Shown: piece after piece, positions 7,489 through 50,097 of the stretch | Layout: each line of letters begins with the position of its first letter | How positions within the stretch are numbered: position 1 is the stretch's first letter | Virus genome (UHGV): UHGV-1362809 | Length of the DNA stretch: 64,000 bases | Origin: a virus | Direction: 5' to 3' (one strand) | The notes under the pieces: generated by a model | Databases searched by the model: none | What the model saw: the letters and a program-made list of their open reading frames with translations, nothing else | What the model was told of the DNA's origin: nothing | Made by a program: the position numbers and the translations under genes

Positions 7489-9507
7489 ATGAAGAATATT
7501 GATACACTCAAACAGTGGGCAAGCGCATATTACAATGACCAGCCTATGGTGTCAGACGATGAGTACGATGCGTTGTATGATACGCTCAAGGCTAAATACC
7601 CTAATGATGCGTTTTTCAACACTGTTGGAGCGTCTACTCAATCAGAAGCAGTAGACCTTCCGTATCAAATGGGTTCTCTAAATAAGGTTAATCCCTATAC
7701 CATCACAGACTTTATAAAGCCTAAGGGTGTTTATCTTGTTACCCCCAAATTCGATGGATTGACGTGCCAGCTTATTTATAAGAATGGTAAATTGAAAGCT
7801 GCCTATACCAGAGGAAACGGGTATCAAGGACAACCAGTTTTGACACGGGCAAAGTACATCGGAGGTATTCCTAAAACTTTACCCACCTCCCTTAAAGGGG
7901 AAATTGAAGTGGAAGGAGAACTGATTATTTACAAGTCGGTGTTTAATAAGCTATACAAAGGAGAGTTTGCCCACCCTCGTAATTTTTGCGTTGGTACTTT
8001 GAGACCAAAGGTGAGTGAAAAAGAGTATCAAGCTTTGATTGATAAGGATTCCTCTGTAAAAGACCGTCTTAAATATATGCAGTTTATTGCTTTCAAGGCG
8101 AGAGGGCTTAAATCTACAAGTAAATATGATTCCTTGTTGACCCTTAAAGGTTGGGGTTTTAGCACTTCCGTTCAACCCTCCAAAAAATGGTCGGACGCCA
8201 ATTTCAAAACATACAAATCAGAGGGTAGGGACGCATTGTGCAAGTGCAAACGATTTGAACTGCCCTTTATGCCTTTGCCTCGTACTTCCGACTTGACAAC
8301 CGACTGGTTTAAAGCAGCTATTGACGGTGTTAAATCCTCCAAGTTTGACGTTGCCTGCGATGGGGTTGTTATAGAGTATGACGATCTCAATAAACAAAAG
8401 AAAATGGGTCTTGAGACAAATTCTCTTAACCCAAAGTTTGCTCGTGCAGTTAAACATATCCAAAAGGAGCAGACAGGTAAGTACACCACGGTGCAAGATA
8501 TTGAATGGAATATGTCTAAACGTGGTAATTTTGTTCCGACTTTGGTTCTCGACCCTATTGAGTTAGAAGGCTCCACCATTTCACGGGTTAGTGGAAACAA
8601 TATTGATATGCTTAAAAAACAGGGCATCGGTGTGGGCGCTAAAATTAAGATAGTCAGATCTGGCGACGTTATTCCTTATATCGTTGACGTGTCGAAAACT
8701 TCTGCTGTTGAGTACCCCAAGAAATGTCCTTACTGCGGTACTAAACTTACTATAGAGGGAGTGCATTTGCATTGTCCTAATGCCAAGTGCAACGGTCGTA
8801 AAGCACAGGAGGTTCAAGGCTTCTTTCAAATTGCTAAGTGCGATGGCGTATCGGGTGCAACAATCAATGACTTTATGTTAGCAGGGTACTCACTCAAAAA
8901 GATTTTGACACTTAAAACTTCTGATATTACTTGTTTGGAAGGATACAAGGCTAAAAGTGCAGCCAACATTGTAAAAGCTATTAAGACTATGCGTGGTTCA
9001 CTTTACCTGTGCAATTTGATGCACGCCTTGGGTTATTTTAACACAGCCCAGACGGGTTTAGGAGCTACTAAGCTTCAGTCTATCATTGACTTTTTGGGAG
9101 CGCAAAATATATATGAAGACAACGTCAAGCAATCGAAACTAAATAAGCTTGGTACGATTGCAGGTATCGCACAAAAGAGTGCCGATATATTTATCTCCAA
9201 CTATTCCAAGTTTCAATCTAAGTTTCAGTCGATTAAGAGTTTGTTCGACCTGTTAGACTTTAAAGAAGTGGAGTTGGCTTCTACGAAATTGGACGGTATG
9301 TCGTTTTGTTTTACTGGTGCAAGAGACCACAACTTGGAAAAGGTTATTGTTGACAATGGAGGTACGGTTAAAGGAAGTGTGACTAAGGATTTGACTGTGT
9401 TGTTTTCAGCGGGGGATTCGAGTAAAACTGCAACTGCCAAACAACGTGGCGTCAAGATTGTTCCTTTTGGTCAGGCTGTTTCCTACATAAACAAGTTAAT
9501 AGGGTAG
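7489..9507 (+). CDS. ligA: NAD-dependent DNA ligase (LigA family)
   Basis: 672 aa; adenylation motif KxDG (TPKFDGLTC); Cys4 zinc finger (CPYCGTKLT...HLHCPNAKC); C-terminal BRCT-like region; RBS caggaggaatcc-ATG. Confidence 0.9.
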   Translation: MKNIDTLKQWASAYYNDQPMVSDDEYDALYDTLKAKYPNDAFFNTVGASTQSEAVDLPYQMGSLNKVNPYTITDFIKPKGVYLVTPKFDGLTCQLIYKNGKLKAAYTRGNGYQGQPVLTRAKYIGGIPKTLPTSLKGEIEVEGELIIYKSVFNKLYKGEFAHPRNFCVGTLRPKVSEKEYQALIDKDSSVKDRLKYMQFIAFKARGLKSTSKYDSLLTLKGWGFSTSVQPSKKWSDANFKTYKSEGRDALCKCKRFELPFMPLPRTSDLTTDWFKAAIDGVKSSKFDVACDGVVIEYDDLNKQKKMGLETNSLNPKFARAVKHIQKEQTGKYTTVQDIEWNMSKRGNFVPTLVLDPIELEGSTISRVSGNNIDMLKKQGIGVGAKIKIVRSGDVIPYIVDVSKTSAVEYPKKCPYCGTKLTIEGVHLHCPNAKCNGRKAQEVQGFFQIAKCDGVSGATINDFMLAGYSLKKILTLKTSDITCLEGYKAKSAANIVKAIKTMRGSLYLCNLMHALGYFNTAQTGLGATKLQSIIDFLGAQNIYEDNVKQSKLNKLGTIAGIAQKSADIFISNYSKFQSKFQSIKSLFDLLDFKEVELASTKLDGMSFCFTGARDHNLEKVIVDNGGTVKGSVTKDLTVLFSAGDSSKTATAKQRGVKIVPFGQAVSYINKLIG

Positions 9508-14119: not shown

Positions 14120-14362
14120 ATGACTCCTTATAAAGGTTGGTTAATAGCCCGAATGAGTGAGCAAGCTACAGGAGGCTTCATTGTACGTGGAGCCTCCCGA
14201 GGTTTGTTTGAGGGTAAAGTAGTGTCCATAGATGCAGACACTAAGGATATTAAAGTGGGTGATACAGTAGTGGCTCCGACGAATGAATGCTTTGAATATA
14301 GCCATCATTCGGAAGGTTTGTTGTACTTTGTACCTCTTAAGCATATCGTAGGTGTTGAATAA
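14120..14362 (+). CDS. groES: co-chaperonin GroES-like (80 aa)
   Basis: Size and pattern of GroES (mobile-loop-like TGGFIVRGASRG, KVGDTVV, C-terminal HIVGVE). Sits immediately upstream of the GroEL-like gene with a TAATG overlap. Confidence 0.7.
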   Translation: MTPYKGWLIARMSEQATGGFIVRGASRGLFEGKVVSIDADTKDIKVGDTVVAPTNECFEYSHHSEGLLYFVPLKHIVGVE

Positions 14363-15987
14363 TGTCACAGGTTATTTTAAGTGGAGACCAGAACAGAACT
14401 GAACTGTTGGAAGGTCTTAAAATTATGGCTGAAACAGTAGGTAGTACTTTGGGTCCTAAGGGTCTCAATGTTATTTTGCAAACTGAATTTGGTGCGCCCC
14501 ATATTACTAAGGACGGTGTTTCAGTCGCTCGTGAAATTAAACTCGATGGTGTGCAGGGATTAGGTGCATCATTGGTTAAGGAAGCTGCTAATAAGGCTGC
14601 TGTTGTCGGTGACGGTACGACTACAAGTTCTGTTTTGGCGTATGAAATTGCACGTCAAGGTATGACAAGCGCAGCCTATACCAACAAGTTTGGTATCAAA
14701 CGTGGTATTGAAGCAGCGTTAAAGGACATTGTGTCTAAACTTGAAGATAACACCATTCAAGTTAAAGATTCCAGCGACGTGTATAATATTGCGTTGGTAT
14801 CGGCTAATCATGATGAATCCATTGCTGAGCTATTTAAAAAGGCGTTTGAGTTGTCAGGCAAGGATGGTGTTATTGTTGTTCAAAAAACAAACAACTCTGA
14901 AACGACTTGCGAACGTGTGGAAGGTATGCAGTTTGACCGTGGATTTTTGAGGTCGATATTTATCAACGACTTTGAAAAACAGGAATGTCGCTTTGAACAC
15001 CCAAATATTGTGTTCGTGGATGGTAAACTCGACAGTCTGATTGAGCTTAGTACATTTTTTAATTCTAATGGAAAGGCTTTGGTTGAAAAACCATTGGTTA
15101 TTGTGGCGGAAGACTTCGATGCCCCTATCGTCGGCACCTTTGTTGAAAACCGTGTGCAGAGTGGTACGAGAGTATTGCTGGTTAAGGCTCCTGGATTTGG
15201 TGACCGTCGTAAAGACCACTTGGCTGACTTGTGTGCCTTTACTGGTGCAACCCTTATTTCTGAAGAGCAAGGTTTGTCGTTGGGTAAATGCACGATGGAA
15301 CACATGGGTCACTGCGATGTGTGGGTTTCGGACTTTGATAAGTCAACTATTCTTGGTGGTAAGTTTGATGAGACCCAGTTAGAAGATGCTAAAAAAGCTA
15401 TTCGTGGTCTTATTGAACGTGCTATTACCGACGTTGACCGCAATCGTTACAAAGAACGTTTGGCTCGTTTATCTGATGGTGTTGTTTCCATTTCGATTGG
15501 CGGTAATACCGATGTTGAAATCAAAGAGTTGTGCGACCGTATTGATGATGCCTTGTGTGCTGTAAAAGCTGCCGTCAAGGGTGGTTATACTGTAGGCGGC
15601 GGTATTGCACTTCTTAAAGCCTCGACTGAATGTGCTAATCCGTTTGACGTTGGCTCATCAGAACATATCGGCTACAACATTCTGCTCAACTGTTGTAAGG
15701 CCCCGTTGAAAAAGATTTGTGCTAATGTTGGTAATGACGATTTTACTCCCGACTATGTTGTTAGTACAGTGCTGCATAGCATAAAGAATGGACAGTCTAA
15801 TTTTGGGTTTGACGCAAAAGAGGAACACTTTGTTCAAAATATGCTAGACCATGGTATTATTGATCCAACGGACGTTGTTATCAGTAGTATCACCTGTGCA
15901 GTTTCCGCTTCTACTTTGTTGTTGAGTTCAGGATGCTCTGTACTACGACCCGAAGAAAAGAAGTGCGACTGTAAGTGTGGCAAGTAA
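14362..15987 (+). CDS. groEL: chaperonin GroEL-like (541 aa)
   Basis: Conserved Hsp60 blocks: GPKG(L)NV, AVVGDGTTTSSVLA (ATP-binding GDGTTT motif), equatorial and apical domain patterns. Confidence 0.9.
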   Translation: MSQVILSGDQNRTELLEGLKIMAETVGSTLGPKGLNVILQTEFGAPHITKDGVSVAREIKLDGVQGLGASLVKEAANKAAVVGDGTTTSSVLAYEIARQGMTSAAYTNKFGIKRGIEAALKDIVSKLEDNTIQVKDSSDVYNIALVSANHDESIAELFKKAFELSGKDGVIVVQKTNNSETTCERVEGMQFDRGFLRSIFINDFEKQECRFEHPNIVFVDGKLDSLIELSTFFNSNGKALVEKPLVIVAEDFDAPIVGTFVENRVQSGTRVLLVKAPGFGDRRKDHLADLCAFTGATLISEEQGLSLGKCTMEHMGHCDVWVSDFDKSTILGGKFDETQLEDAKKAIRGLIERAITDVDRNRYKERLARLSDGVVSISIGGNTDVEIKELCDRIDDALCAVKAAVKGGYTVGGGIALLKASTECANPFDVGSSEHIGYNILLNCCKAPLKKICANVGNDDFTPDYVVSTVLHSIKNGQSNFGFDAKEEHFVQNMLDHGIIDPTDVVISSITCAVSASTLLLSSGCSVLRPEEKKCDCKCGK

Positions 15988-33441: not shown

Positions 33442-33486
33442 AGGTATATACAGTTGAAAATGACTGGTAATGATTGCGAGGTAGCT

Positions 33487-35202
33487 ATGTATAAAGAACC
33501 TGTGATGGAATTGTTGAAAGATTGTTGTCGAAAAGACTTGAGTAGCTTACTCGGTTTTTTACGGGAACGTGTTGTAGACCAGCCCTTTTATGCGTGCGTG
33601 ACGAACGACAACGAGCTGGTACTGGGTAAACGGTTTTTTACTCTCAATCAAAAACAACGTACTTTTGCTATTTTACATGAGCTGTTGCATATTAGCTATG
33701 GACATTTCAAGTTTTACAAAGCGGGTGTAAATCACAAAGTTATGAATATAGCTAATGATGCTGTTATCAATGAAGCTATTTTGCTCGGTAAGATAGTACC
33801 TGTGGAATATGTGCAGGCGGTTGACGGTATTCCTTTGTTAAAGAATACGGTGTACCGAAATAAGGACAATTTGGTTGCCTTTTGTAAGAGCTATTATGGT
33901 AATTTAAGACAGGGAGACCTTACAGACGGGTGGTTTAAACGGTATCTTACTTCCTCTATTGTGTACAAGGTATTGATGGAATCCCCTGTACCAGAGGTTC
34001 CTAAGGTTAGTCCTCGTAAATCTAACAGCCAAAACAGTCAGGATACAAATCAAAATACTGGTTCTGACGATAACAATGTTAAACAGGAGAATAATGATGA
34101 ATACAAAGACGAACACAAAGCAAACGGCAAAGAAGATGATGCTGAAAATACAGGGGATGAAGAATCCACAGGGGAAAGTGGAGGTTCGGATTACAGCCCC
34201 GACCGAGATTATGACGAAACCGAGTGTGATGGACAAGATAGCCAAGATAGCCGAGATAGTGAAGCAGATATAGACCTCGATGATGAGTCAGACCAAGATG
34301 ACGAAACACAGTCTGATGATGGGTCAGATTCTGATGACGAGTTAGACCAAGACGATGAAGCACAATCGAACAACGAATCTCAAAATAGTGACACGCAGGG
34401 GGAACAACCAGACCCCCTGCAATATGAACCTGTAGCTTTTGACCTTGAGAGCTTGGGTCAAGAATACCAAGACGATTTTGACGGTGCGTCTAACCCGTTT
34501 GAAGTGTACAAAAACTGTGACGGACAGTTTGACAACAGCAATCAGATTTGTGGTGGTTTGAGTTCCGACGAAGCCTATGAAAACGGTTATAATGCGTATC
34601 TTGTTAAAGAGGCATTATCAAGAAATATCGACTGGAAATCGGTTGTAAAGACGTGTATTGCACAGTCAAAAAAGACTATAAAGCAATATGGTTTTAGTGT
34701 TCCTAATCGTCGGAACTACAAACTGCAGCAGGTTACCCAGTCTAAGGTACAGCTCCCCAATCAATGTAGCACTCAACCCGTTCCTACGGTGCATATTTAT
34801 GTGGATACCTCGACAAGTGTGTCTGACTACAGTTTGGCGTGTATGATATATGAGATTAAGGATATCTACAAATTTAGCGGGAACATTGATTTGACTGTAC
34901 GGTTCTTTACTGAATATGTGTACGGGGAAATGAATACCAAAGCCAAAACCTTCAACTATCGTAATATGCCTAAATTGAGGCGTGGTGGAACCAGTTTTAA
35001 CGCTATTTATGCGCAGTACTACAGTCCTAATGGAGAAGTACACCATAAAATTCCCGATGTTTGTGTGGTAATTACGGACGGTTATTGTTGGATTGATAAC
35101 CAATTCTTACCCCTTCCCCTTGGACGTAAGACTGTATGGGTAACTGATAGAACGATGCGTATGCCCAACCCCAAATGTATCAACGTAGTAAGACCTTTTT
35201 AA
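33487..35202 (+). CDS. MoxR partner protein: N-terminal HExxH metallopeptidase-like domain, acidic linker, C-terminal VWA-like domain
   Basis: ILHELLHISYGH (HExxH); ~150-aa D/E/S-rich linker; VHIYVDTSTSVSDYS (DxSxS MIDAS-like). Start chosen at ATG 33487 (gaggtagct RBS); alternatives are 33454 and 33460. Confidence 0.65.
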   Translation: MYKEPVMELLKDCCRKDLSSLLGFLRERVVDQPFYACVTNDNELVLGKRFFTLNQKQRTFAILHELLHISYGHFKFYKAGVNHKVMNIANDAVINEAILLGKIVPVEYVQAVDGIPLLKNTVYRNKDNLVAFCKSYYGNLRQGDLTDGWFKRYLTSSIVYKVLMESPVPEVPKVSPRKSNSQNSQDTNQNTGSDDNNVKQENNDEYKDEHKANGKEDDAENTGDEESTGESGGSDYSPDRDYDETECDGQDSQDSRDSEADIDLDDESDQDDETQSDDGSDSDDELDQDDEAQSNNESQNSDTQGEQPDPLQYEPVAFDLESLGQEYQDDFDGASNPFEVYKNCDGQFDNSNQICGGLSSDEAYENGYNAYLVKEALSRNIDWKSVVKTCIAQSKKTIKQYGFSVPNRRNYKLQQVTQSKVQLPNQCSTQPVPTVHIYVDTSTSVSDYSLACMIYEIKDIYKFSGNIDLTVRFFTEYVYGEMNTKAKTFNYRNMPKLRRGGTSFNAIYAQYYSPNGEVHHKIPDVCVVITDGYCWIDNQFLPLPLGRKTVWVTDRTMRMPNPKCINVVRPF

Positions 35203-42676: not shown

Positions 42677-43144
42677 ATGAAACGATTTGTAGTTTTAGCG
42701 CTTATGTTGGGTTTGACAGGATGCGTACATTTTGACCCAGACGCCCAAAGATTGTTCACCGAGGAAGTATGGTTGAATATCGAAGGCGAGGATCCTTCAT
42801 ATACTTATTTGACTCCTGGACGAGTTGTTGTAACGGACGACTGGTGCGGTGGTGACCAAGCCCTGCGATTTGTACCGACCAAAGGAAAACAAAGTTATGC
42901 GGATTACTTTGGTAGTGGAGTTTTCTTTCCCCTCGGTGCAACAATAGACCCCGTTGTAGTGTGTACGGAGTTTAAAAAACGTCGGGGCATGTATGTGGTG
43001 GGCTACAAGAACCAACCTCTTAATTATATCGCTTTCGACTGGACTGTGCAACAGGTGCTGAAACAATCTAAAGAAGCAGCTAAATCGTGCAACTTAAAAG
43101 CGGGTCAGGACTACCGTATCAAATGTAAGGAGGCTTGGAAATGA
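42677..43144 (+). CDS. putative lipoprotein (155 aa)
   Basis: Signal peptide with lipobox LTGC. Confidence 0.55.
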   Translation: MKRFVVLALMLGLTGCVHFDPDAQRLFTEEVWLNIEGEDPSYTYLTPGRVVVTDDWCGGDQALRFVPTKGKQSYADYFGSGVFFPLGATIDPVVVCTEFKKRRGMYVVGYKNQPLNYIAFDWTVQQVLKQSKEAAKSCNLKAGQDYRIKCKEAWK

Positions 43145-43425
43145 AAAGTTATAATATAAATGGCATAGTAAAAACTATTGAAGAATGGAAAAAGGATATT
43201 GCACCCCAAGTAAAAAAGCTGCACTTTGGTTGGAATGATGCCGATGTGCAAAGGGAAATGAAGAATTGGGACAAAACTATTGTGCATTTCTTTGAAAACT
43301 TAGACTGTGAGTATCCCTGTGACGACCAAGGTAATCTGTACAAAAGAGAAATTATTGTGGACGAACATAGGTATTATGATAGGTTAGAGGATATATCTCG
43401 TCTTATTGCAGATTGTATCATATAA
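43141..43425 (+). CDS. hypothetical protein (94 aa)
   Basis: ATG 43141 after aaggaggcttgga; ATGA overlap. Confidence 0.45.
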   Translation: MKSYNINGIVKTIEEWKKDIAPQVKKLHFGWNDADVQREMKNWDKTIVHFFENLDCEYPCDDQGNLYKREIIVDEHRYYDRLEDISRLIADCII

Positions 43426-43439
43426 GGGAGGAGATACTA

Positions 43440-43634
43440 ATGTATAAAGTGTTAGACCGTCTTATGTATAGTGTGGTCGGTAGAGGAGTATCTCAATCTA
43501 CTTGGGATAAAATGAGTTTACGAGATAAACAATCTTATCTAAGGAAGTATCGTAATTCCAAGTATAAACCCAAATATAAAAATTGGGTAATTCGTCCTTT
43601 TGCTGATATGTATAAATTTATTGAAAGTGTGTAA
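43440..43634 (+). CDS. N-terminal fragment of the GNAT-like paralogue (64 aa), frame 0
   Basis: ATG 43440 after aagggaggagatact; homologous to residues 1-65 of the 27973 gene. Confidence 0.4.
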   Translation: MYKVLDRLMYSVVGRGVSQSTWDKMSLRDKQSYLRKYRNSKYKPKYKNWVIRPFADMYKFIESV

Positions 43635-44127
43635 GCTTACACTCGCTCCAAAATATAGGTGGAGGGTAGACGATACGCATACTGTTGCGGACTATAATAA
43701 TGATAAATTGTTTTCCACAAAGGGTGGCAGTGTAGTAGCAGTAGACGCCGACGGTGATATTATTTCACTATGTAAAAATGATGGAGACCTTTATTTTGGG
43801 TCTGATATACTAAAAGTTGCTGTTAAGAATGGAGGTAAAAAGTTAGACGCCTATGGTGATAGTTTGTACGAGTTTTATACAAAAAATGGATTTAGACCTA
43901 TTTCTTGGACACCTTTTAATAAAGAGTACGCTCCTCACGATTGGGGAGAAGATTTTGGGGACAATCATCATATAATTTTTTATGTATATGACCCTAATTA
44001 TATTTGCACTAAAACATACGAGGAATTTTTGCAAAGTGTTCCATGTTGTAAATATAATGATGGTTATGAAAAGGCACGAAAAATAAGGGATGAATATCTC
44101 TTAACTATGGAGAATAATAATGGCTAA
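43600..44127 (+). CDS. C-terminal part of the GNAT-like paralogue (175 aa), +1 frame relative to 43440
   Basis: Homologous to residues ~58-192 of the 27973 gene (KNGGKKLDAYGDSLYEFYTKNGF); no ATG (TTG at 43600); overlaps the upstream fragment by 35 nt. Looks like a frameshifted single gene. Confidence 0.45.
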   Translation: MLICINLLKVCKLTLAPKYRWRVDDTHTVADYNNDKLFSTKGGSVVAVDADGDIISLCKNDGDLYFGSDILKVAVKNGGKKLDAYGDSLYEFYTKNGFRPISWTPFNKEYAPHDWGEDFGDNHHIIFYVYDPNYICTKTYEEFLQSVPCCKYNDGYEKARKIRDEYLLTMENNNG

Positions 44128-47100
44128 GGATTATAATGCCAATTCAATCAAAGTACTGGACTACCCCGTCTGTTGCCACGTTCGCCCAGGAATGTATATC
44201 GGCGATACAACGGCTCCCAAGGGTGGATACTGCGATGGTGTGTTGCAGTGTGTAAAAGAAGCTCTTGATAATGCGGTTGACGAGGCTTCAAACAAGTATT
44301 CTAATGTTGTCGGTTTTGTGGCACAAAAGGACGGTTCCTTTGTAATTTATGATACGGGACGTGGTATTCCTGTTGAAGTACACCCCAAGTTTAAAAAAGA
44401 AAAGAAGTCAACTTTGGAGGTTATTTTTACCGTGTTACACGCAGGCGGTAAAATGGACTCTTCCAATTATGATAAATCGGTCGGTCGTAACGGTTTGGGT
44501 ATTTCTGTCACAAATGCTTTAAGCTCTTGGTTTCGAGTTACAACGTGCAGGAATCGTAAATGGTATACCCAGTTGTACCAAGAGGGGTATGTTAAGTCTA
44601 AAGTGCGGACTACCGTAAATCCTTCTAAAAGATTGGGTATAAAAGTTTCTAAAGGCACAGTAATTGAATTTTTACCCTTGTCCAAGGTGTTTAAAGATAG
44701 TATCAAGTGCGATTTGTCTGCTGTTTTTAAATGGATGAAGTTTAGTCAATACCTACTTCCTGGGATTACATTCAAGTACGAAAATCGTCTAAAAGGTAAA
44801 AGTAAGGAATTTTGTTCCACCAAGGGCATCGAGGGATACCTTAATAAACTGTGTAAGGATATCGGTTCTGAGGATATTACTGACACTTTTACGCTAAGAT
44901 ATCCTACTATTGACTTGTCTCTTAAATGGGTAAAAAATGACGACTGTATCATAGAATCCTATGTAAATGGAAGCCCTACTCCTAACGGAGGTACACACGT
45001 CAATGGGTTGAAAAAAGCTCTTACTGCTTGCATTTCTAACTATTCCAAACGGTCAGACTCCTTTAAGCCCGACGATTTGTTAGAGGGACTGGTGTGCGTT
45101 TTAAACTACAAAATGGACGAACCCTTGTTCGATAGTCAGACCAAGACAAAGTTGGTAAACAAAGGTACGGTGGATGATTTACCTGCTGAGATTGAAAAAG
45201 ATTTGACTAAGTGGGGCAGAGCTAATAAACAGGCATTATTGGAGATTATTCAACGTGCTAACGATATTAGGGGTGCAAAATTACAGTTTGAACAGGCTCG
45301 TAAGGCTATTGCAGCTGTTAAGGGTAAACGAGGTAAATCGTCGCTTCCCCCTTCTTCCAAATTTTCAGTTTCCACGACCAAAAATGCAAAGGATAGAGAA
45401 CTTTACATCGTGGAAGGTTTGAGTGCGGCAGGTACGGCTAAAGCAGCTAAGGATCACCATTATCAGGAGTCGTTGGCTCTTCGTGGTAAATTTCTTAATG
45501 CTGAAAAAACAACTGCAAGTCGTTTGTTTGAAAGTGATGAAGTGCTTAATATACTTAAAGCGATTGGGTATAATTCTGACGATAAATCTATAACCTATCG
45601 TGTCGGTAAAGTAATTATGTTGAGCGATGAGGATGATGATGGTTGCTTGGATGGTAACACCCGTATTTTGACTTTGGACGGTAAAAATCCAAAAATTAAA
45701 ACTTTGGTGAAGCAGTATGAAAAGGATAAGAACCCTATTGAAGTATATTCAGTAGATAAAGATGGTAATTTGGTAGTAGGAAAAGCTATTGAACCTCGTG
45801 TAACTAGAACTGTCAACAAAATGATTAAACTAACTTTTGACAACGGTTCTACGGTTTTGTGTACGCTTAACCATAAGTGGCTTATAAATAATCCTTCTAG
45901 GAAAGATGATAGAGTTATTTGGAAAGATGGTTTGGGGTATATACAAGCTAAGGACTTAAAGGAAACAGATAGTATTCGTAGCGTGTATCTTGAAAATAGA
46001 CATTCAGATGGGTCTTTTGTTTCTAATAGATATAAGTGTATTATAAATGCTTCCTCACAGGGAAAATACTGTGATAGAGATACTATGCCTGTGCATCAAT
46101 GGGTTAAATGTTGTGAGCAAAAAGGTTGGAAAAAATATAGAAAGGCTGGTAGGGGTATAGCTATACATCATATAGACGAAAACCCACAAAATAATTGCTC
46201 GAGTAATTTAAAGTATTTAACCCAAGCGGAGCATGGTAAGTTGCATATAAAGGAGCAGTGTGAAAAATATAATGGGTCTCAAAAACAGAAAGATGATTTA
46301 GCTAAAAACTGGGCTAACGGTGTTTATGATAAGATAAAGGATACTATTATTATATATAATAGATCAAAAAAACACAGAAAGCTGGTAAGTAAAATGAATG
46401 GAGATAAGAACCAATGCTTCAGACAGGCTATGGGAAAATTAAAGAACTATTATTTAACATTGAAGCATAACCACATAAAGGTAAATAGAGATAATTGGAA
46501 TCTCTATGTGGGTAAAAAGGGAATAGGTGGTGTTATGACTTGGGAGCTCTTTCATTCTAAAGGTATAAAGTTAAAAGATATTAAAACTTTTACTAATATG
46601 AGAGAAAGTGTCCGGTTGTACAAGTTATCTACTGTGAAAAACTGTTATCCTACTCAAAAACTTACAAAGTTTGAGTCTTTTTGTGACTATTTAAAGTCCA
46701 AGGGGTTGTCCGTTAATAAAGCTACATATAATAAGATAAGGATAAAGCTTATTCGTAAAAAGAAACTTTCTCAAGGGACGCCTAAATGGGAAACAATAAA
46801 GAACCATAAAATTGTTAAAAAGGAAGTTATTAATTCCGAACAGGAAGTTTATTGTATGACTGTTCCTGATTATGGTAACTTTATGGTGGCGGATAAGTAT
46901 GGTAACGGAATTGGTAGTAGCAATAGTCATATTGATACTTTGGTTTGTACATTGCTACAAAAGTTATGTCCTGATTTAATTGAAAAGGGTATGCTGTACA
47001 AGGTAAAGGCACCTTTATTCGTTGGGAGAACTGACTCTACCCAATATTATGGTGCTAGTATGAATGACCTAAAACGGCAGTATAAAGGAAAGTTTAAGTC

Positions 47101-47281
47101 TATTACCCGTATCAAAGGTTGGGGAGAAGCCAGTGCATCTTTGTTAAGAGAAGTTGCCTTCGACCCTGCTACCCGTAAACTAATTCAAATAAAACAGAGC
47201 GACAAAAAGGGTATACAACAGGCTAAGAAACTTTTGGGTGACGACATCGAAGCTCGTAGACAGTTGTTAAGTGAGGAATAA
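44120..47281 (+). CDS. type II DNA topoisomerase large subunit (GyrB-like ATPase plus Toprim; T4 gp39/gp60-like) interrupted by an intein
   Basis: GyrB blocks RPGMYIGDT, LDNAVDEA, LHAGGKMD, GRNGLGISV, ELYIVEGLSAAGTAK. DEDDDG | CLDGNTRIL... ...GIGSSN | SHIDTLVCTLL: the extein junction recreates the canonical DxDxDGSHI Toprim motif. The intein (45644-46924, 427 aa) contains an HNH motif (HHID...N...H). Confidence 0.85.
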   Translation: MAKDYNANSIKVLDYPVCCHVRPGMYIGDTTAPKGGYCDGVLQCVKEALDNAVDEASNKYSNVVGFVAQKDGSFVIYDTGRGIPVEVHPKFKKEKKSTLEVIFTVLHAGGKMDSSNYDKSVGRNGLGISVTNALSSWFRVTTCRNRKWYTQLYQEGYVKSKVRTTVNPSKRLGIKVSKGTVIEFLPLSKVFKDSIKCDLSAVFKWMKFSQYLLPGITFKYENRLKGKSKEFCSTKGIEGYLNKLCKDIGSEDITDTFTLRYPTIDLSLKWVKNDDCIIESYVNGSPTPNGGTHVNGLKKALTACISNYSKRSDSFKPDDLLEGLVCVLNYKMDEPLFDSQTKTKLVNKGTVDDLPAEIEKDLTKWGRANKQALLEIIQRANDIRGAKLQFEQARKAIAAVKGKRGKSSLPPSSKFSVSTTKNAKDRELYIVEGLSAAGTAKAAKDHHYQESLALRGKFLNAEKTTASRLFESDEVLNILKAIGYNSDDKSITYRVGKVIMLSDEDDDGCLDGNTRILTLDGKNPKIKTLVKQYEKDKNPIEVYSVDKDGNLVVGKAIEPRVTRTVNKMIKLTFDNGSTVLCTLNHKWLINNPSRKDDRVIWKDGLGYIQAKDLKETDSIRSVYLENRHSDGSFVSNRYKCIINASSQGKYCDRDTMPVHQWVKCCEQKGWKKYRKAGRGIAIHHIDENPQNNCSSNLKYLTQAEHGKLHIKEQCEKYNGSQKQKDDLAKNWANGVYDKIKDTIIIYNRSKKHRKLVSKMNGDKNQCFRQAMGKLKNYYLTLKHNHIKVNRDNWNLYVGKKGIGGVMTWELFHSKGIKLKDIKTFTNMRESVRLYKLSTVKNCYPTQKLTKFESFCDYLKSKGLSVNKATYNKIRIKLIRKKKLSQGTPKWETIKNHKIVKKEVINSEQEVYCMTVPDYGNFMVADKYGNGIGSSNSHIDTLVCTLLQKLCPDLIEKGMLYKVKAPLFVGRTDSTQYYGASMNDLKRQYKGKFKSITRIKGWGEASASLLREVAFDPATRKLIQIKQSDKKGIQQAKKLLGDDIEARRQLLSEE
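45644..46924 (+). mobile_element. intein 1 (Cys1 ... Asn, followed by Ser) with HNH homing-endonuclease domain, inside the topoisomerase ATPase/Toprim subunit
   Basis: In-frame 1281-nt insert beginning CLDGNTRILTLDG and ending GNGIGSSN before SHI; interrupts the conserved DxDxDGSHI motif. Confidence 0.75.
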
Positions 47282-47282
47282 A

Positions 47283-49763
47283 ATGAAAAAAGCACAGAAT
47301 GTTATCACAGATTATAATTCCTTTGTTAGAAGCAGTTATAAAAGGTATGCAATTAGTGTATTGAGCGACCGTGCGTTACCAGATTTTCGTGACGGTTTGA
47401 AGCCCGTTCAGAGAAAAATGTTGTGGACTGCCTATAAACTTGGTCTACATAATAACAAGGCTTTTACAAAATGTACGAATATTACTGGTAATTTGATGGC
47501 TCGTTTTTCCCCGCACTGTTTAGACGGTAATACTCAAATACCGTTATTAAACGGGGAAAAAATTAAATTAAAGGATATGGATTATAATAAAGTTTATGAT
47601 GTTCTTTCAGTTGACGAAAGCGGTAAAATAGTTGCTGCTAAGCTTTCAAAGGCTCGTAAAGGTAAAATTGTTGATAAAGAATATCATATCGTATTGTCCA
47701 ATGGTACAGTACTACCTTATTGTTCCAACAATCACCAGTTTTATATGGGTAATTCCACTTGGAAGAGGGCAGACGAAATACAGGTTGGAGATGAAGTGTA
47801 TGGAGGGACTTGGCTCTTTGAACAGGATTATTGTCCTATCGTAAGTTATTCTTCAAATAGTAAAAATACGAGAAGAACTGGAGTACATAGAATAGTTGAC
47901 TTCACTTACAGAGGTATTCTAAATAAAACTAATGAGAATACTGGGGATAAGTTACAAGTTCATCATAAGGACTTAAATACCCGTAATAATTTAATATCTA
48001 ACTTGAAAAGACTATCTTATAATGACCACATGAGATTACACAGTAGTTCTGGAGGTAATACTGTTAATGAAGTATTAAGGTCTTCAAAACGAGTAGTAAA
48101 AGCTAATAAGGAAAAAAATTCCTTTTTACTCTCAAGTTATAATAAATACAGATGGTTATATGTAGCCATTAAAGCAGTTAAAATTTTAAAGGAGAATAAA
48201 CTTCCCCTTACATGGAAAAACTATGATAGTTTAAGAACTAAGATACGAGGTTTGACCCTAAAGACCACGTTGCTTGAAAGGGGTTGGGATTTAAAAAGAC
48301 TATACAAAGAAAGAAATTGGACTTTTGATAAAACACCAATTCTTGGAAAAGTAACAAGAGCCTTATTAGGAAATAATAAACGACATCCCTATGAAGGAAA
48401 AGGCTACGGTTGGAGTAAAGGTTTAAGTCATAATTGGAATAACAGTAACATTAAACCAAAACTCTATGTAAAAGAAATAATAGTTAAAAAAGTAAAAAGA
48501 AAACAACTCTATGACTTTACTGTTAAAAAGCATCAAAATGTTTTGATTATTTTGGGAGATAACAAGACGTTTATTTGTGCCCATAATAGTGATGCCTATG
48601 GGGTGCTGGTTAATTTGACTGGTAATAGCGTAAAATTCAATCTTTTTGAAGGAAACGGGAACTTTGGTAACTACATTGACGAAGCTGCCGCACCCCGTTA
48701 TACGGAAGCCAAATTAAGTAAGTATAGCGACGACTTTTTGTTGAATCAGAACTATTTGGAAGTGTGTAAAATGCTTCCAAACTATTTGGACACCGAGGAA
48801 GAACCTATGTTGTTACCCTCCTTGTTGCCTGTGTTGTTTTTGATTGGATGTCAAGGTATTGCGGTAGGTTATAAAACTGAAATTCCAACCTTTACTCTTA
48901 AGTCTCTTATAAAAGTTGTCAAAAAAGGGTTGGTCAAAAAACTAAAAAGTAAGGATTTACTGTGTTTAGAGTTTGATGACATCTATAACGCTCAGTATGT
49001 TGGGACTGACCAGCAGTTGTTGGATTATTATACTTCTGGTAAGGCAGCCCTACCTTTTAATGTATTCTATAAATTGGATAGCACTAAATCATTTACTATC
49101 AATTCTATCATAGGAAATGGGGAAACTATGATTAACAAGATAGAATCTGACGATAGGGTTTATCAAGTAAATGATTTGACAAGTGGCAACGACATCAAAA
49201 TACAAGTTGTGTTGAAGCCTTCTATAGCCAGTAAGGACGTGAAAAATGTAGCTGCTGATATTGTGGCTAAGTTAAAAATAAATAGAATATTTATTACAAA
49301 CGTTATCAAAAGAGTTGTTACTGAACAAAAGGACGGAGACCATACGTTTTATGACGAGGGTGCGGTCTTAAAAGAGTCTAACCCAGTTGACTTGCTCAAC
49401 GAATGGATTAAATGGCGTGTTGAACTTGAAGTAAAGATGCTTAACAACCAAGTATCTAAGACAAATGACAAGGTAAACCAGTTGGAGTTTTATCGTTATT
49501 TAATTTCTAAATTAGATATTATCTTTAAAGTACTCAAATCGAAAACAAATGATTTGAAGGGAGCGATGAAGAAGGCTCTTAAGTGTACCGATGACCAAGC
49601 TCAAACGGTGTTAGATATGCCTGTTAGACGGCTGAGTAAATTGAGCGACGACGAGTTAAAGGGACAAATTAAGGACTTACAGCAGTATTCAAAGGACTGT
49701 AAAAAATGGTTGAAAAAACCACAAGATAAAATTTTGCAAGATTTGAACAAGGTAAAGGTGTGA
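47283..49763 (+). CDS. type II DNA topoisomerase DNA-cleavage subunit (GyrA-like; T4 gp52-like) interrupted by an intein
   Basis: RYAISVLSDRALPDFRDGLKPVQRKML (GyrA signature); ...MARFSPH | CLDGNTQIPL... ...FICAHN | SDAYGVLVNL...GNGNFG: extein junction recreates the HPHG(D)SAVY...GNFG block. ATG 47283 (gaggaataaa) preferred over 47271. Confidence 0.85.
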   Translation: MKKAQNVITDYNSFVRSSYKRYAISVLSDRALPDFRDGLKPVQRKMLWTAYKLGLHNNKAFTKCTNITGNLMARFSPHCLDGNTQIPLLNGEKIKLKDMDYNKVYDVLSVDESGKIVAAKLSKARKGKIVDKEYHIVLSNGTVLPYCSNNHQFYMGNSTWKRADEIQVGDEVYGGTWLFEQDYCPIVSYSSNSKNTRRTGVHRIVDFTYRGILNKTNENTGDKLQVHHKDLNTRNNLISNLKRLSYNDHMRLHSSSGGNTVNEVLRSSKRVVKANKEKNSFLLSSYNKYRWLYVAIKAVKILKENKLPLTWKNYDSLRTKIRGLTLKTTLLERGWDLKRLYKERNWTFDKTPILGKVTRALLGNNKRHPYEGKGYGWSKGLSHNWNNSNIKPKLYVKEIIVKKVKRKQLYDFTVKKHQNVLIILGDNKTFICAHNSDAYGVLVNLTGNSVKFNLFEGNGNFGNYIDEAAAPRYTEAKLSKYSDDFLLNQNYLEVCKMLPNYLDTEEEPMLLPSLLPVLFLIGCQGIAVGYKTEIPTFTLKSLIKVVKKGLVKKLKSKDLLCLEFDDIYNAQYVGTDQQLLDYYTSGKAALPFNVFYKLDSTKSFTINSIIGNGETMINKIESDDRVYQVNDLTSGNDIKIQVVLKPSIASKDVKNVAADIVAKLKINRIFITNVIKRVVTEQKDGDHTFYDEGAVLKESNPVDLLNEWIKWRVELEVKMLNNQVSKTNDKVNQLEFYRYLISKLDIIFKVLKSKTNDLKGAMKKALKCTDDQAQTVLDMPVRRLSKLSDDELKGQIKDLQQYSKDCKKWLKKPQDKILQDLNKVKV
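47517..48587 (+). mobile_element. intein 2 (Cys1 ... His-Asn, followed by Ser) with HNH-like motif, inside the GyrA-like subunit
   Basis: In-frame 1071-nt insert beginning CLDGNTQIPLLNG (same N-terminal block as intein 1) and ending ICAHN; contains HHKDLNTRNN...HMRLH. Confidence 0.7.
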
Positions 49764-49764
49764 C

Positions 49765-50097
49765 ATGAATGTAAAAGAACAACAAGAAAATCTTATTGAA
49801 CAATTAGCTGATGCCTTAAATAAATATGATGGCATCGACGCGGATATTAACTACGTTGCTGAGGAGGGTAAAGGCACTATTATATTTTATGTAGAAAATA
49901 TGGAACATCTAAGGCAGTTTTGTACTGATGTAAAAGACGCTTTGAGTGCCGTTTTTGTTATCAGCTATTTATACTACGATGACACTGAGACTGATAAACT
50001 TGGTTTTGCTCTTGAGCCTAAGTGTCGTAATCCAAAGGTTTTTGAGGAATCTGTAAATAACCTTATAAATGCAATAAAAAAGGTGACGGAGAAATAA
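49765..50097 (+). CDS. hypothetical protein (110 aa)
   Basis: ORF. Confidence 0.45.
   Translation: MNVKEQQENLIEQLADALNKYDGIDADINYVAEEGKGTIIFYVENMEHLRQFCTDVKDALSAVFVISYLYYDDTETDKLGFALEPKCRNPKVFEESVNNLINAIKKVTEK

Follow-up and report, generated by a model that had tools for sequence, protein, structure and literature searches.

HNH-containing inteins in catalytic motifs of both type IIA topoisomerase subunits of an uncultured jumbo phage

Introduction

Why are both subunit genes of a single phage topoisomerase interrupted inside catalytic motifs, and are the two interrupting segments copies of one another? The question is raised by a 64,000-nucleotide (nt) stretch of the virus genome UHGV-1362809 (the window), which is part of an uncultured jumbo phage represented by a 237-kb metagenome contig in ENA. 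The window encodes a type IIA topoisomerase whose GyrB-like and GyrA-like subunits each contain a long in-frame insert, here called intein 1 and intein 2, respectively. A first-pass annotation, made from the DNA letters, described both inserts as inteins with HNH-type endonuclease motifs and a common N-terminal block, and proposed that one homing intein had been duplicated and transposed into the second subunit. The analysis reported here supports the first of these statements and not the second: each subunit very probably carries an independent, site-specific homing intein.

It is established that inteins occur in GyrA and GyrB and in phages, that they may contain HNH nucleases, that a genome may hold several of them and that they decay to mini-inteins. 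The main finding is well documented yet to be expected: inteins favour the catalytic motifs of DNA-metabolism enzymes, and they abound in phages. Two aspects rise slightly above the routine, namely a matched relative with empty sites and a footprint in the flanks, and an intein 1 clade in which both Cys1 and Pro1 forms have a block F cysteine. The first provides a pair of intein-plus and intein-free alleles in topoisomerase subunits that are 97-98% identical, direct evidence of homing that is rarely available for uncultured jumbo phages. The second, the clade at the Toprim site, is the more interesting lead.

Intein structure and insertion sites

Judged by their sequence, both inserts are confirmed as genuine Cys...Asn inteins that carry HNH modules and sit precisely within essential catalytic motifs. 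Intein 1 separates DDDG from SHI in the Toprim motif DxDxDG/SHI of the GyrB-like subunit (...LSDEDDDG/CLDGNTRI...GIGSSN/SHIDTL; a slash within a sequence marks a junction), and intein 2 interrupts the GyrA-like subunit after SPH (...ARFSPH/CLDGNTQI...FICAHN/SDAYGV). The open reading frames (ORFs) and the alignments return exactly the lengths and coordinates given in the first-pass annotation for both sites (Table 1), and the start CLDGNT(R or Q)I that it pointed out is seen in both inteins. A search for the splicing blocks located blocks B, F and G in each. In intein 1 the residues concerned are Cys1, Thr74 and His77 of block B (TxxH), Trp79 (B:12), Cys404 (F:4) and Ser425-Ser426-Asn427 of block G, followed by Ser+1; in intein 2 they are Cys1, Ser70 and His73 of block B (SxxH), Asp333 (F:4) and His356-Asn357 of block G, again followed by Ser+1. 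Blocks F and G of both align across the intein family.

Profile and fold comparisons agree with this anatomy. The Pfam model Intein_splicing (PF14890, gathering cut-off 35.8 bits) matches the GyrB precursor with 45 bits and the GyrA precursor with 37.5 bits, and HNH_3 lies inside both inserts. With the NCBIfam model TIGR01445 (intein_Nterm, cut-off 24.5) intein 1 scores 44.7 bits, above the threshold, and intein 2 scores 16.9 bits, below it. An AlphaFold model of intein 2 built from 15 sequences (predicted local distance difference test, pLDDT, 79) gave 38 PDB fold matches at E ≤ 0.001, nearly all of which are intein splicing domains and the remainder related Hint folds (hedgehog autoprocessing, bacterial intein-like), with target-normalised TM-scores up to 0.62; the model of intein 1, built from a 4-sequence alignment, was unusable (pLDDT 41). 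The G+C fraction is 0.33 in intein 1 and 0.315 in intein 2, and higher (0.36-0.40) in the exteins, those compared with intein 1 having 0.39-0.40. A group I intron or another RNA element in the region was also considered and was discarded, as Rfam gave no match at E ≤ 1.

The first-pass annotation had described the GyrA site as HPHG/(D)S. The insertion does lie in the block equivalent to HPHGD, in the quinolone-resistance region, but the motif of this phage lineage is SPH-(A or S)-D, which is two residues shorter than HPHGDS and leaves no Gly at the junction. Measured from the conserved Tyr (Ser+1, two residues, Tyr), the distance is that of the HPHGD/S inteins in other GyrA proteins, and the +1 Ser of intein 2 is arguably equivalent to GyrA Ser83, the alignment being ambiguous at this point.

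Relatives with empty sites were used to assess the junctions. A search with the whole GyrA precursor located contig L003 through a 469-amino-acid (aa) intein-free protein listed at 91% identity. This contig and a second one, L004, carry adjacent genes for an uninterrupted GyrB of 626 aa and an uninterrupted GyrA of 469 aa, and in L003 these are exactly the lengths expected after precise excision of the inteins. Over their full length, the spliced exteins of the window are 98.1% (GyrB) and 97.4% (GyrA) identical to the L003 proteins, with zero gaps. The empty sites read DDDG/KHID and SPH/ADAYG, the latter in P0152/L003, and the corresponding L003 DNA is ...GATGAAGATGATGATGGA/AAACACATAGATACATTG... 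in gyrB and ...TTTTCCCCGCAC/GCCGATGCTTATGGGGTG... in gyrA. From empty to occupied allele the +1 residue changes from Lys to Ser in GyrB and from Ala to Ser in GyrA, the latter at all three codon positions (GCC versus AGT); the presence of Ser at +1 in both occupied alleles fits the requirement for a +1 nucleophile. The predicted spliced junction peptides are ...DEDDDGSHIDTL... (VIMLSDEDDDGSHIDTLVCTLLQK) for GyrB and ...FSPHSDAYGV... (FSPHSDAYGVLVNLTGNSVK) for GyrA. The spliced exteins also align ungapped across both junctions to solved topoisomerase IV and gyrase structures, the sole gap in that alignment being located a few residues past the GyrA junction. The extein alignment that the first-pass annotation had suggested as a check thus yields seamless junctions against L003 and the solved structures alike, and the terminal Cys and Asn and the HNH blocks, whose absence would mark ordinary insertions, are present.

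That the inserts are nevertheless ordinary lineage-specific insertions or an assembly artefact, retained in the mature enzyme, is scarcely credible. They split the DxDxDG-SHI and HPH-block motifs, which are continuous in solved structures, they contain every splicing block with a terminal Asn followed by Ser, they match intein models, and homologous inteins occur in thousands of proteins. Furthermore, an identical GyrB precursor is found on four long contigs, implying that the intein-bearing phage propagates.

HNH nuclease modules

Both inteins keep intact all the positions that are invariant in the HNH family (H32, H33, N41, N45, L46 and H54), which in intein 2 appear as H-H, N, N-L, H and H. 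The HNH segments of 21 out of 21 family members match Pfam HNH_3 (PF13392), the full-length homologues of intein 2 (P0155, P0162-P0169) have precomputed PF13392 matches, and intein 1 also matches the HNH endonuclease family PHROG 7545 (E = 4e-10). Among solved structures the family HNH profile has one meaningful match, I-HmuI (PDB 1U3E, E = 1.1e-5), the intron-encoded nicking endonuclease of Bacillus phage SPO1. The likeness resides in the conserved segment hRlV...vvdHkD.Nk.NN...NL, and beyond the HNH motif, in the DNA-binding part, no similarity was detectable. Between this motif and block F lie 130-200 residues without a match to any known family, which are helical in the intein 2 model and presumably constitute the DNA-binding part. 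From these features we infer that both inteins are I-HmuI-like HNH homing endonucleases.

Relationship between the two inteins

If one homing intein had been duplicated in this genome and moved ectopically into the second subunit, the two inteins would be recent paralogues. It is true that both occur in one genome, belong to one HNH-intein family and are 29% identical over their first ~205 aa, which cover the N-terminal splicing region and the HNH motif (62 bits, E = 4e-15). In addition, the CLDGNT start is found in only 4 of 405 family N-termini, those of the two inteins and of two relatives at the intein 1 site, so that outside the intein 1 clade no other N-terminus has it, and the chance of such a six-residue match is ~0.005.

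The distribution of relatives points the other way. An exhaustive profile search of the intein family returned 9129 cluster representatives at E ≤ 0.001, 655 of them at E ≤ 1e-30, and many of the matches are multi-intein proteins. Among the 151 best proteins, 112 hold an intein nearer to intein 1 than intein 2 is, and 27 hold one nearer to intein 2 than intein 1 is. Neighbours were also ranked from 193 aligned splicing cores. Intein 1 had as its eight closest neighbours inteins of the GyrB DxDxDG site without exception (45-90% core identity), and intein 2 ranked 168th of 192; those closest to intein 2 were mostly GyrA HPH-block inteins, and intein 1 ranked 42nd of 192. In other phages, each intein has relatives at its own site that are full-length and score higher. 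The relatives at the intein 1 site comprise P0034, P0001, P0125 and L006, the last three being mini-inteins without nuclease. Intein 2 aligns over its full length with the HNH inteins of other GyrA proteins (P0155, P0156, P0162, P0166 and others) at 132-92 bits, P0155 scoring 132. A word-index protein search with intein 2 alone gave no match, these relatives being reached only via the whole GyrA precursor.

The internal comparison is equally at odds with a recent duplication. The C-terminal halves of the two inteins do not align, and their active-site residues differ, being W-C-S-S-N in intein 1 and F-D-A-H-N in intein 2. The codons of the shared CLDGNT differ at five of the six third positions, which excludes recent DNA copying or gene conversion between the inteins. 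Moreover, the two sites are filled independently in other phages, since the P0155 phage has an intein in GyrA only, phiRSL1 in GyrB only and L003 in neither. We therefore regard duplication within this genome as very improbable and abandon that part of the first-pass annotation; by these comparisons, inteins 1 and 2 are separate site-specific lineages of one very large HNH-intein family, with only deep shared ancestry.

Intein 2 resembles a group of phage-like, metagenomic HNH inteins in the GyrA HPHGD block (P0155, P0156, P0162-P0173) in family and, over its entire length, in architecture (25-34% identity in the aligned regions), in being inserted in the same block with Ser+1, and in its position three or two residues before the conserved Tyr. 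The exact point differs: most of them lie at HPHGD/S and the window intein at SPH/S, while P0155 (P0155/P0156 being at L049 6001-8412) lies one residue further, at HAHS/S, and P0171 at HPH/C. These shifts are partly extein length variation, although that of P0155 is a genuine one-residue shift versus the window, relative to the conserved Tyr.

Some features of the wider family were also recorded. The best matches (P0003-P0151) are very long proteins of up to 3009 aa with 4-10 matched stretches, corresponding to several HNH inteins each, and SWVRNL/P, LRYNPL/P and IVDE/C are recurrent host junctions. Several GyrB proteins contain 2-4 inteins at separate motifs, examples being DxDxDG and the positions following EGDSA and residue ~122.

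Mobility footprint

The gyrB exteins of the window and L003 differ at 93 of 1881 nt, and 28 of these differences are concentrated between -19 and +131 of the junction (7.7 expected, binomial P = 1e-9). Synonymous divergence (dS) reaches 2.66 over the 44 codons past the junction as compared with 0.17 in the rest of the gene, with the protein 93% identical there. This tract looks like the result of co-conversion, in which flanks were copied from a diverged donor during homing, and would equally fit replacement during a precise loss in L003. A phage of the P0001/L005 type was tried as donor of the diverged flank, with an outcome that was not decisive: among 26 informative sites, the window shares 13 with L005 and 8 with L003.

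Contig L005 (151-1821, P0001) provides a second comparison, as it encodes a partial GyrB of a diverged phage with a 162-aa mini-intein at the site of intein 1. Its N-extein is 49% identical to that of the window in aa and 52% in nt (GyrB exteins overall being about 49-61% identical), whereas the splicing regions of the mini-intein are 87% identical to those of intein 1 in aa and 81-82% in nt, the HNH part having been cleanly deleted. An intein so much more conserved than its exteins argues for horizontal movement between diverged phages, and the ratio of nonsynonymous to synonymous substitution rates (dN/dS) between intein 1 and the L005 splicing domain, 0.054, implies purifying selection and functional constraint on that domain. 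The comparison indicates that the intein 1 lineage moved between diverged phages and that loss of its nuclease is under way in one host, which accords with the homing-cycle model. The final ~25 residues of the called L005 protein seem to result from a frameshift or from running off the contig.

Nuclease decay is what the homing-cycle model expects once an intein is fixed, and several relatives at the intein 1 site are already devoid of nuclease, with mini-inteins in P0001/L005, P0125, L006 and phiRSL1. The window inteins could accordingly be passengers that still splice but are now only vertically inherited, their HNH nucleases inactive and their homing over. We consider this unlikely, because every invariant HNH residue is intact in both inteins, the frames are open through both ~200-aa nuclease and DNA-binding inserts, and intein-less alleles in near-identical phages together with a divergent tract centred on the junction are a signature of recent recombination. 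Homing inteins in the proper sense remain the favoured description of both elements.

Apart from the junction tract, window and L003 show other local differences. Of the 93 gyrB differences, 14 are packed into its first ~45 nt, and the genes directly upstream are not the same: small ORFs of 94, 64 and 168 aa in the window, as against ORFs of 153, 308 and 250 aa in L003 (3148-6119 compared), where the 250-aa product contains SMC_N/AAA domains. There appears to be a mosaic recombination boundary at the gyrB start. At the other end, a 110-aa ORF that follows gyrA is missing from L003, and differences are concentrated in the last ~75 nt of gyrA.

Splicing chemistry of intein 1 and its clade

By its residues intein 2 would be a textbook class 1 intein, with Cys1, SxxH, Asp333 at F:4, His356 before the terminal Asn, and Ser+1. 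The assignment of intein 1, whose block positions were confirmed by alignment to the Pho RadA, Npu DnaE and Pab PolII inteins, is less simple. With respect to class 1, it has Cys404 at F:4 and Ser426 at G:6; with respect to class 3, Trp79 and Cys404 are present, while position 1, where class 3 has no Cys, Ser or Thr, is Cys, and G:5 is Ser425 rather than Thr. Asp at F:4 and His at G:6 are not obligatory in class 1. Loss of the penultimate His is common in phage inteins (PMC5050341).

The same pattern extends to relatives at the Toprim site. P0034, P0001, P0125 and L006 begin with Cys and share the residues of intein 1, and a sister subclade at the same site (P0118, P0067, P0101, P0136, P0138, L038 and phiRSL1) combines Pro1 with Cys F:4, a Ser-Ser-Asn or Ser-Ala-Asn end and Cys+1. 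All members of the clade have Cys F:4 and Ser G:5, most have Trp B:12, and none has a penultimate His, G:6 being Ser or Ala. The Cys1 subclade, which includes intein 1, pairs with Ser+1, and the Pro1 sister subclade with Cys+1. In an isolated phage the latter is represented by the gyrB of the Ralstonia jumbo phage phiRSL1 (L002 2477-5125, BAG41779.1), in which a 179-aa mini-intein occupies aa 521-699 at the DxDxDG site (DPDPDG/PFVADT...VYCLTV...VVSSN/CHIN; Pro1, Cys F:4, no penultimate His, Cys+1). The phiRSL1 record annotates this gene only as type IIA topoisomerase, without an intein, and a similar insert is found in the IMG/VR contig L038. An intein that starts with Pro is unable to perform the first step of the class 1 pathway. 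In the sampled family, Pro occupies position 1 in 48 of 405 N-termini, and Cys F:4 accompanies it in nearly every case with a locatable block F.

In light of these residues, intein 1 might splice through attack of the block F Cys404 on the N-terminal junction, as in class 3, with Cys1 being dispensable or regulatory. This is a real possibility, though one that we lean away from. It would account for a clade with Trp B:12, Cys F:4 and Ser G:5 but no penultimate His, for a sister subclade that begins with Pro and yet retains Cys F:4, and for the near-constant association of Pro N-termini with that cysteine. The class 3 prototype, the DnaB intein of mycobacteriophage Bethlehem, also has Pro1 and Cys F:4, with a Trp-Cys-Thr triplet, and 3 of the 37 WCT inteins then in InBase had an N-terminal Ser or Cys (PMC2807308). 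On the other hand, the intein 1 subclade keeps Cys1, Thr B:7 and His B:10, which leaves the class 1 path fully open, the residue at G:5 is not Thr, and Cys F:4 is also found in family members with canonical Cys1...HN ends. The clade profile is closest to class 1 structures, and no solved class 3 intein was found among its matches up to E = 10. Judged by sequence, intein 1 may use a class 1 or a class-3-like route.

When set beside class 3 inteins in general, intein 1 is similar in Trp B:12, Cys F:4, a hydroxyl residue at G:5, Ser+1 and a phage host, with Pro1 in its sister inteins as in the prototype. It is different in keeping Cys1, in having Ser-Ser at G:5-G:6 instead of Thr-His, and in its HNH nuclease, LAGLIDADG nucleases being present in 82.5% of class 3 inteins (PMC7891396).

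A more doubtful suggestion, offered tentatively, is that intein 1 could represent a transitional form, still extant, between the chemistries of class 1 and class 3; its GyrB-Toprim-site clade lies within a mostly class 1-like HNH family. If both the Cys1 and the Pro1 forms splice, the clade would represent a stepwise route from splicing by an N-terminal nucleophile to splicing by a block F cysteine. Such a route, if true, would have arisen separately from the class 3 inteins of the mycobacterial and phage DnaB type, and would counter both the argument that the transition from class 1 to class 3 has no viable intermediates (PMC7664689) and the view of a single class 3 origin (PMC4031507).

Proposed homing cycle and comparison with known systems

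The anatomy of the inserts, the precise presence/absence polymorphism, the flank divergence, the purifying selection and the family relationships described above can be brought together in a model in which the two inteins were acquired separately, from different site-specific lineages. Both genes, whose frames are open, would be translated as precursors of 1053 and 826 aa, from which the Hint domain would excise itself and join the flanks to give a large subunit of 626 aa and an A subunit of 469 aa. In this process Ser+1 would act as the acceptor nucleophile in both inteins and cyclisation of the terminal Asn would free the intein, restoring the Mg-binding Toprim DxDxDG-SHI and the SPH-SD block beside the DNA-gate helix. 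That splicing takes place is suggested by the intact blocks, the catalytic nature of the host motifs, the selection on the splicing domain and the propagation of the phage. The freed inteins would then nick or cut intein-less alleles in co-infecting related phages, probably by nicking as I-HmuI does, and recombinational repair from the intein-bearing copy would transfer the intein with a short flank, of which the gyrB tract would be the footprint. A competitive benefit to the carrier phage is possible, a nuclease encoded in a jumbo-phage intron being reported to confer one (PMC11620839).

Several points weigh against this model. The splicing and the endonuclease activity of both inteins are deduced from their sequences, and the HNH_3 score of intein 2 is under the Pfam cut-off (Table 1). 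Intein 1 is without two common assisting residues of class 1, with Cys in place of Asp at F:4 and Ser in place of the penultimate His. The gyrA junction differs from L003 only at the +1 codon and at position +8, with no extended tract, and a gain in the window phage is indistinguishable from a precise loss in L003, so the direction of the event is one that we infer. Finally, independent acquisition does not explain the CLDGNT shared by both inteins, which we regard as chance or convergence.

Among cellular systems, the GyrB intein of Synechocystis sp. PCC 6803, a classic HNH intein, is comparable to intein 1 in that an HNH nuclease is located in the Hint domain, the insertion is in the GyrB Toprim region and the ends are Cys1...Asn with Ser+1. 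It differs in its cellular host, and intein 1 has instead Cys F:4 and Ser-Ser-Asn. The Synechocystis intein is inserted at EGD/SAGG rather than at DxDxDG/SHI and has the canonical His-Asn end; inteins at EGDSA-type sites occur in the sampled family (P0010). The mycobacterial GyrA inteins, of which Mxe GyrA (PDB 1AM2) is among the fold matches of intein 2, likewise interrupt the A subunit in its catalytic N-terminal domain, with the differences that they occupy another insertion site and have no HNH module. They sit beside the catalytic Tyr and not in the HPHGD block, and in the window GyrA the NCBIfam model GyrA_w_intein finds a match in the extein part alone. A literature search on the exact insertion sites (GyrB DxDxDG, GyrA HPHGD) and on the phiRSL1 intein found nothing relevant, the cataloguing of these sites being unverified.

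A phage parallel is the topoisomerase II of T4, where the insertion of mobA splits gene 39/60 (PMC2988022). There too an HNH-family homing element has landed in a critical region of a phage topoisomerase II gene; in contrast to the window inteins, which are in frame and would allow a single chain to be restored by splicing, mobA is a free-standing endonuclease gene and the subunit is split in two. In practical terms, the two Ser+1 inteins and a natural mini-intein derivative are candidate protein-engineering tools, and the two predicted HNH nucleases have natural targets that are known sequences in topoisomerase genes.

Topoisomerase genes and genomic surroundings

Coordinates of the topoisomerase genes, their parts and the other features mentioned are given in Table 1. 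The GyrA-like gene probably starts at the ATG rather than at the upstream GTG given in the ORF list, as a GAGGA site is located upstream of the former, inside the end of gyrB, and the same start is called in the source contig L001 and in L003; the change shifts the numbering by four residues. The GyrB N-extein matches Pfam HATPase_c, DNA_gyraseB and Toprim and PHROG 543 (E = 1.6e-120), the whole GyrB precursor also matches DNA_gyraseB_C, and in the GyrA precursor DNA_topoisoIV is split into two pieces. The PHROGs and NCBIfam annotations agree with Pfam for both precursors.

The description of the enzyme as T4-type in the first-pass annotation is borne out by its layout, with a mature GyrB-like subunit and a short GyrA-like one (PHROGs 543 and 551), the latter giving no PF03989 match and having no C-terminal beta-pinwheel (DNA-wrapping) domain. 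It is not borne out by sequence, GyrA being closer to bacterial ParC/GyrA (E = 3e-33) than to T4 gp52 (PDB 8ylu, E = 9e-16). The best phage topoisomerase matches, ~35% identical, come from the jumbo phages Xanthomonas PhiXhv, Vibrio GR11A and phiRSL1. Megablast against 50,697 phage records retrieved no close DNA relative of the region, and the GyrA C-extein had no relative in a scan of IMG/VR.

Table 1. Positions of the topoisomerase genes, inteins and other features in the window.
Feature	Position	Strand	Description
GyrB-like large subunit gene	44120-47281	+	ORF, 1053-aa precursor
GyrB N-extein	44120..45643	+	aa 1-508: GHKL ATPase, transducer, first part of Toprim; ends DEDDDG
Intein 1	45644..46924	+	427 aa, precursor aa 509-935, in GyrB Toprim motif
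Intein 1 CLDGNT start	45644-45661
Intein 1 block B	45860-45880
Intein 1 HNH motif	46157..46246	+	IAIHHIDENPQNNCSSNLKYLTQAEHGKLH; PF13392 HNH_3 25.9 bits (isolated segment), cut-off 24.8
Intein 1 block F	46844-46888
Intein 1 block G	46907-46924
GyrB C-extein	46925..47281	+	SHIDTL... to stop codon
Diverged gyrB tract	45625-45643 and 46925-47056	+	second part is first ~132 nt of C-extein; mostly synonymous versus L003
GyrA-like subunit gene	47271 or 47283-49763	+	ORF, 830 aa (GTG 47271) or 826 aa (ATG 47283)
GyrA N-extein	47283..47516	+	aa 1-78 (826-aa numbering), ends ARFSPH; Pfam DNA_topoisoIV, PHROGs 551 and 20354
Intein 2	47517..48587	+	357 aa, in GyrA block after SPH
Intein 2 CLDGNT start	47517-47534
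Intein 2 HNH motif	47952..48041	+	LQVHHKDLNTRNNLISNLKRLSYNDHMRLH; HNH_3 19.2 bits, cut-off 24.8
GyrA C-extein	48588..49763	+	SDAYGV... to stop codon; Pfam DNA_topoisoIV aa 442-818
First ~45 nt of gyrB	44120-44165		14 differences from L003
Small ORFs upstream of gyrB	42677-44127		94, 64 and 168 aa
ORF after gyrA	49765-50097		110 aa
NAD-dependent DNA ligase	7489-9507	+	PHROG 3869, E = 2e-123
GroEL-type chaperonin	14362-15987	+	full-length; PHROG 5725, E = 5e-114
582-aa ORF	33454-35202	+	PHROG 1314 (HNH endonuclease, E = 5e-27)

Elsewhere in the window, large genes for an NAD-dependent ligase, a GroEL homologue and an SbcD-like nuclease occur together with those of other phage proteins. No further intein of the same family was found within its 64 kb. 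The 582-aa ORF, which matches an HNH endonuclease family in two stretches, may be another homing nuclease of this phage, either free-standing or fused.

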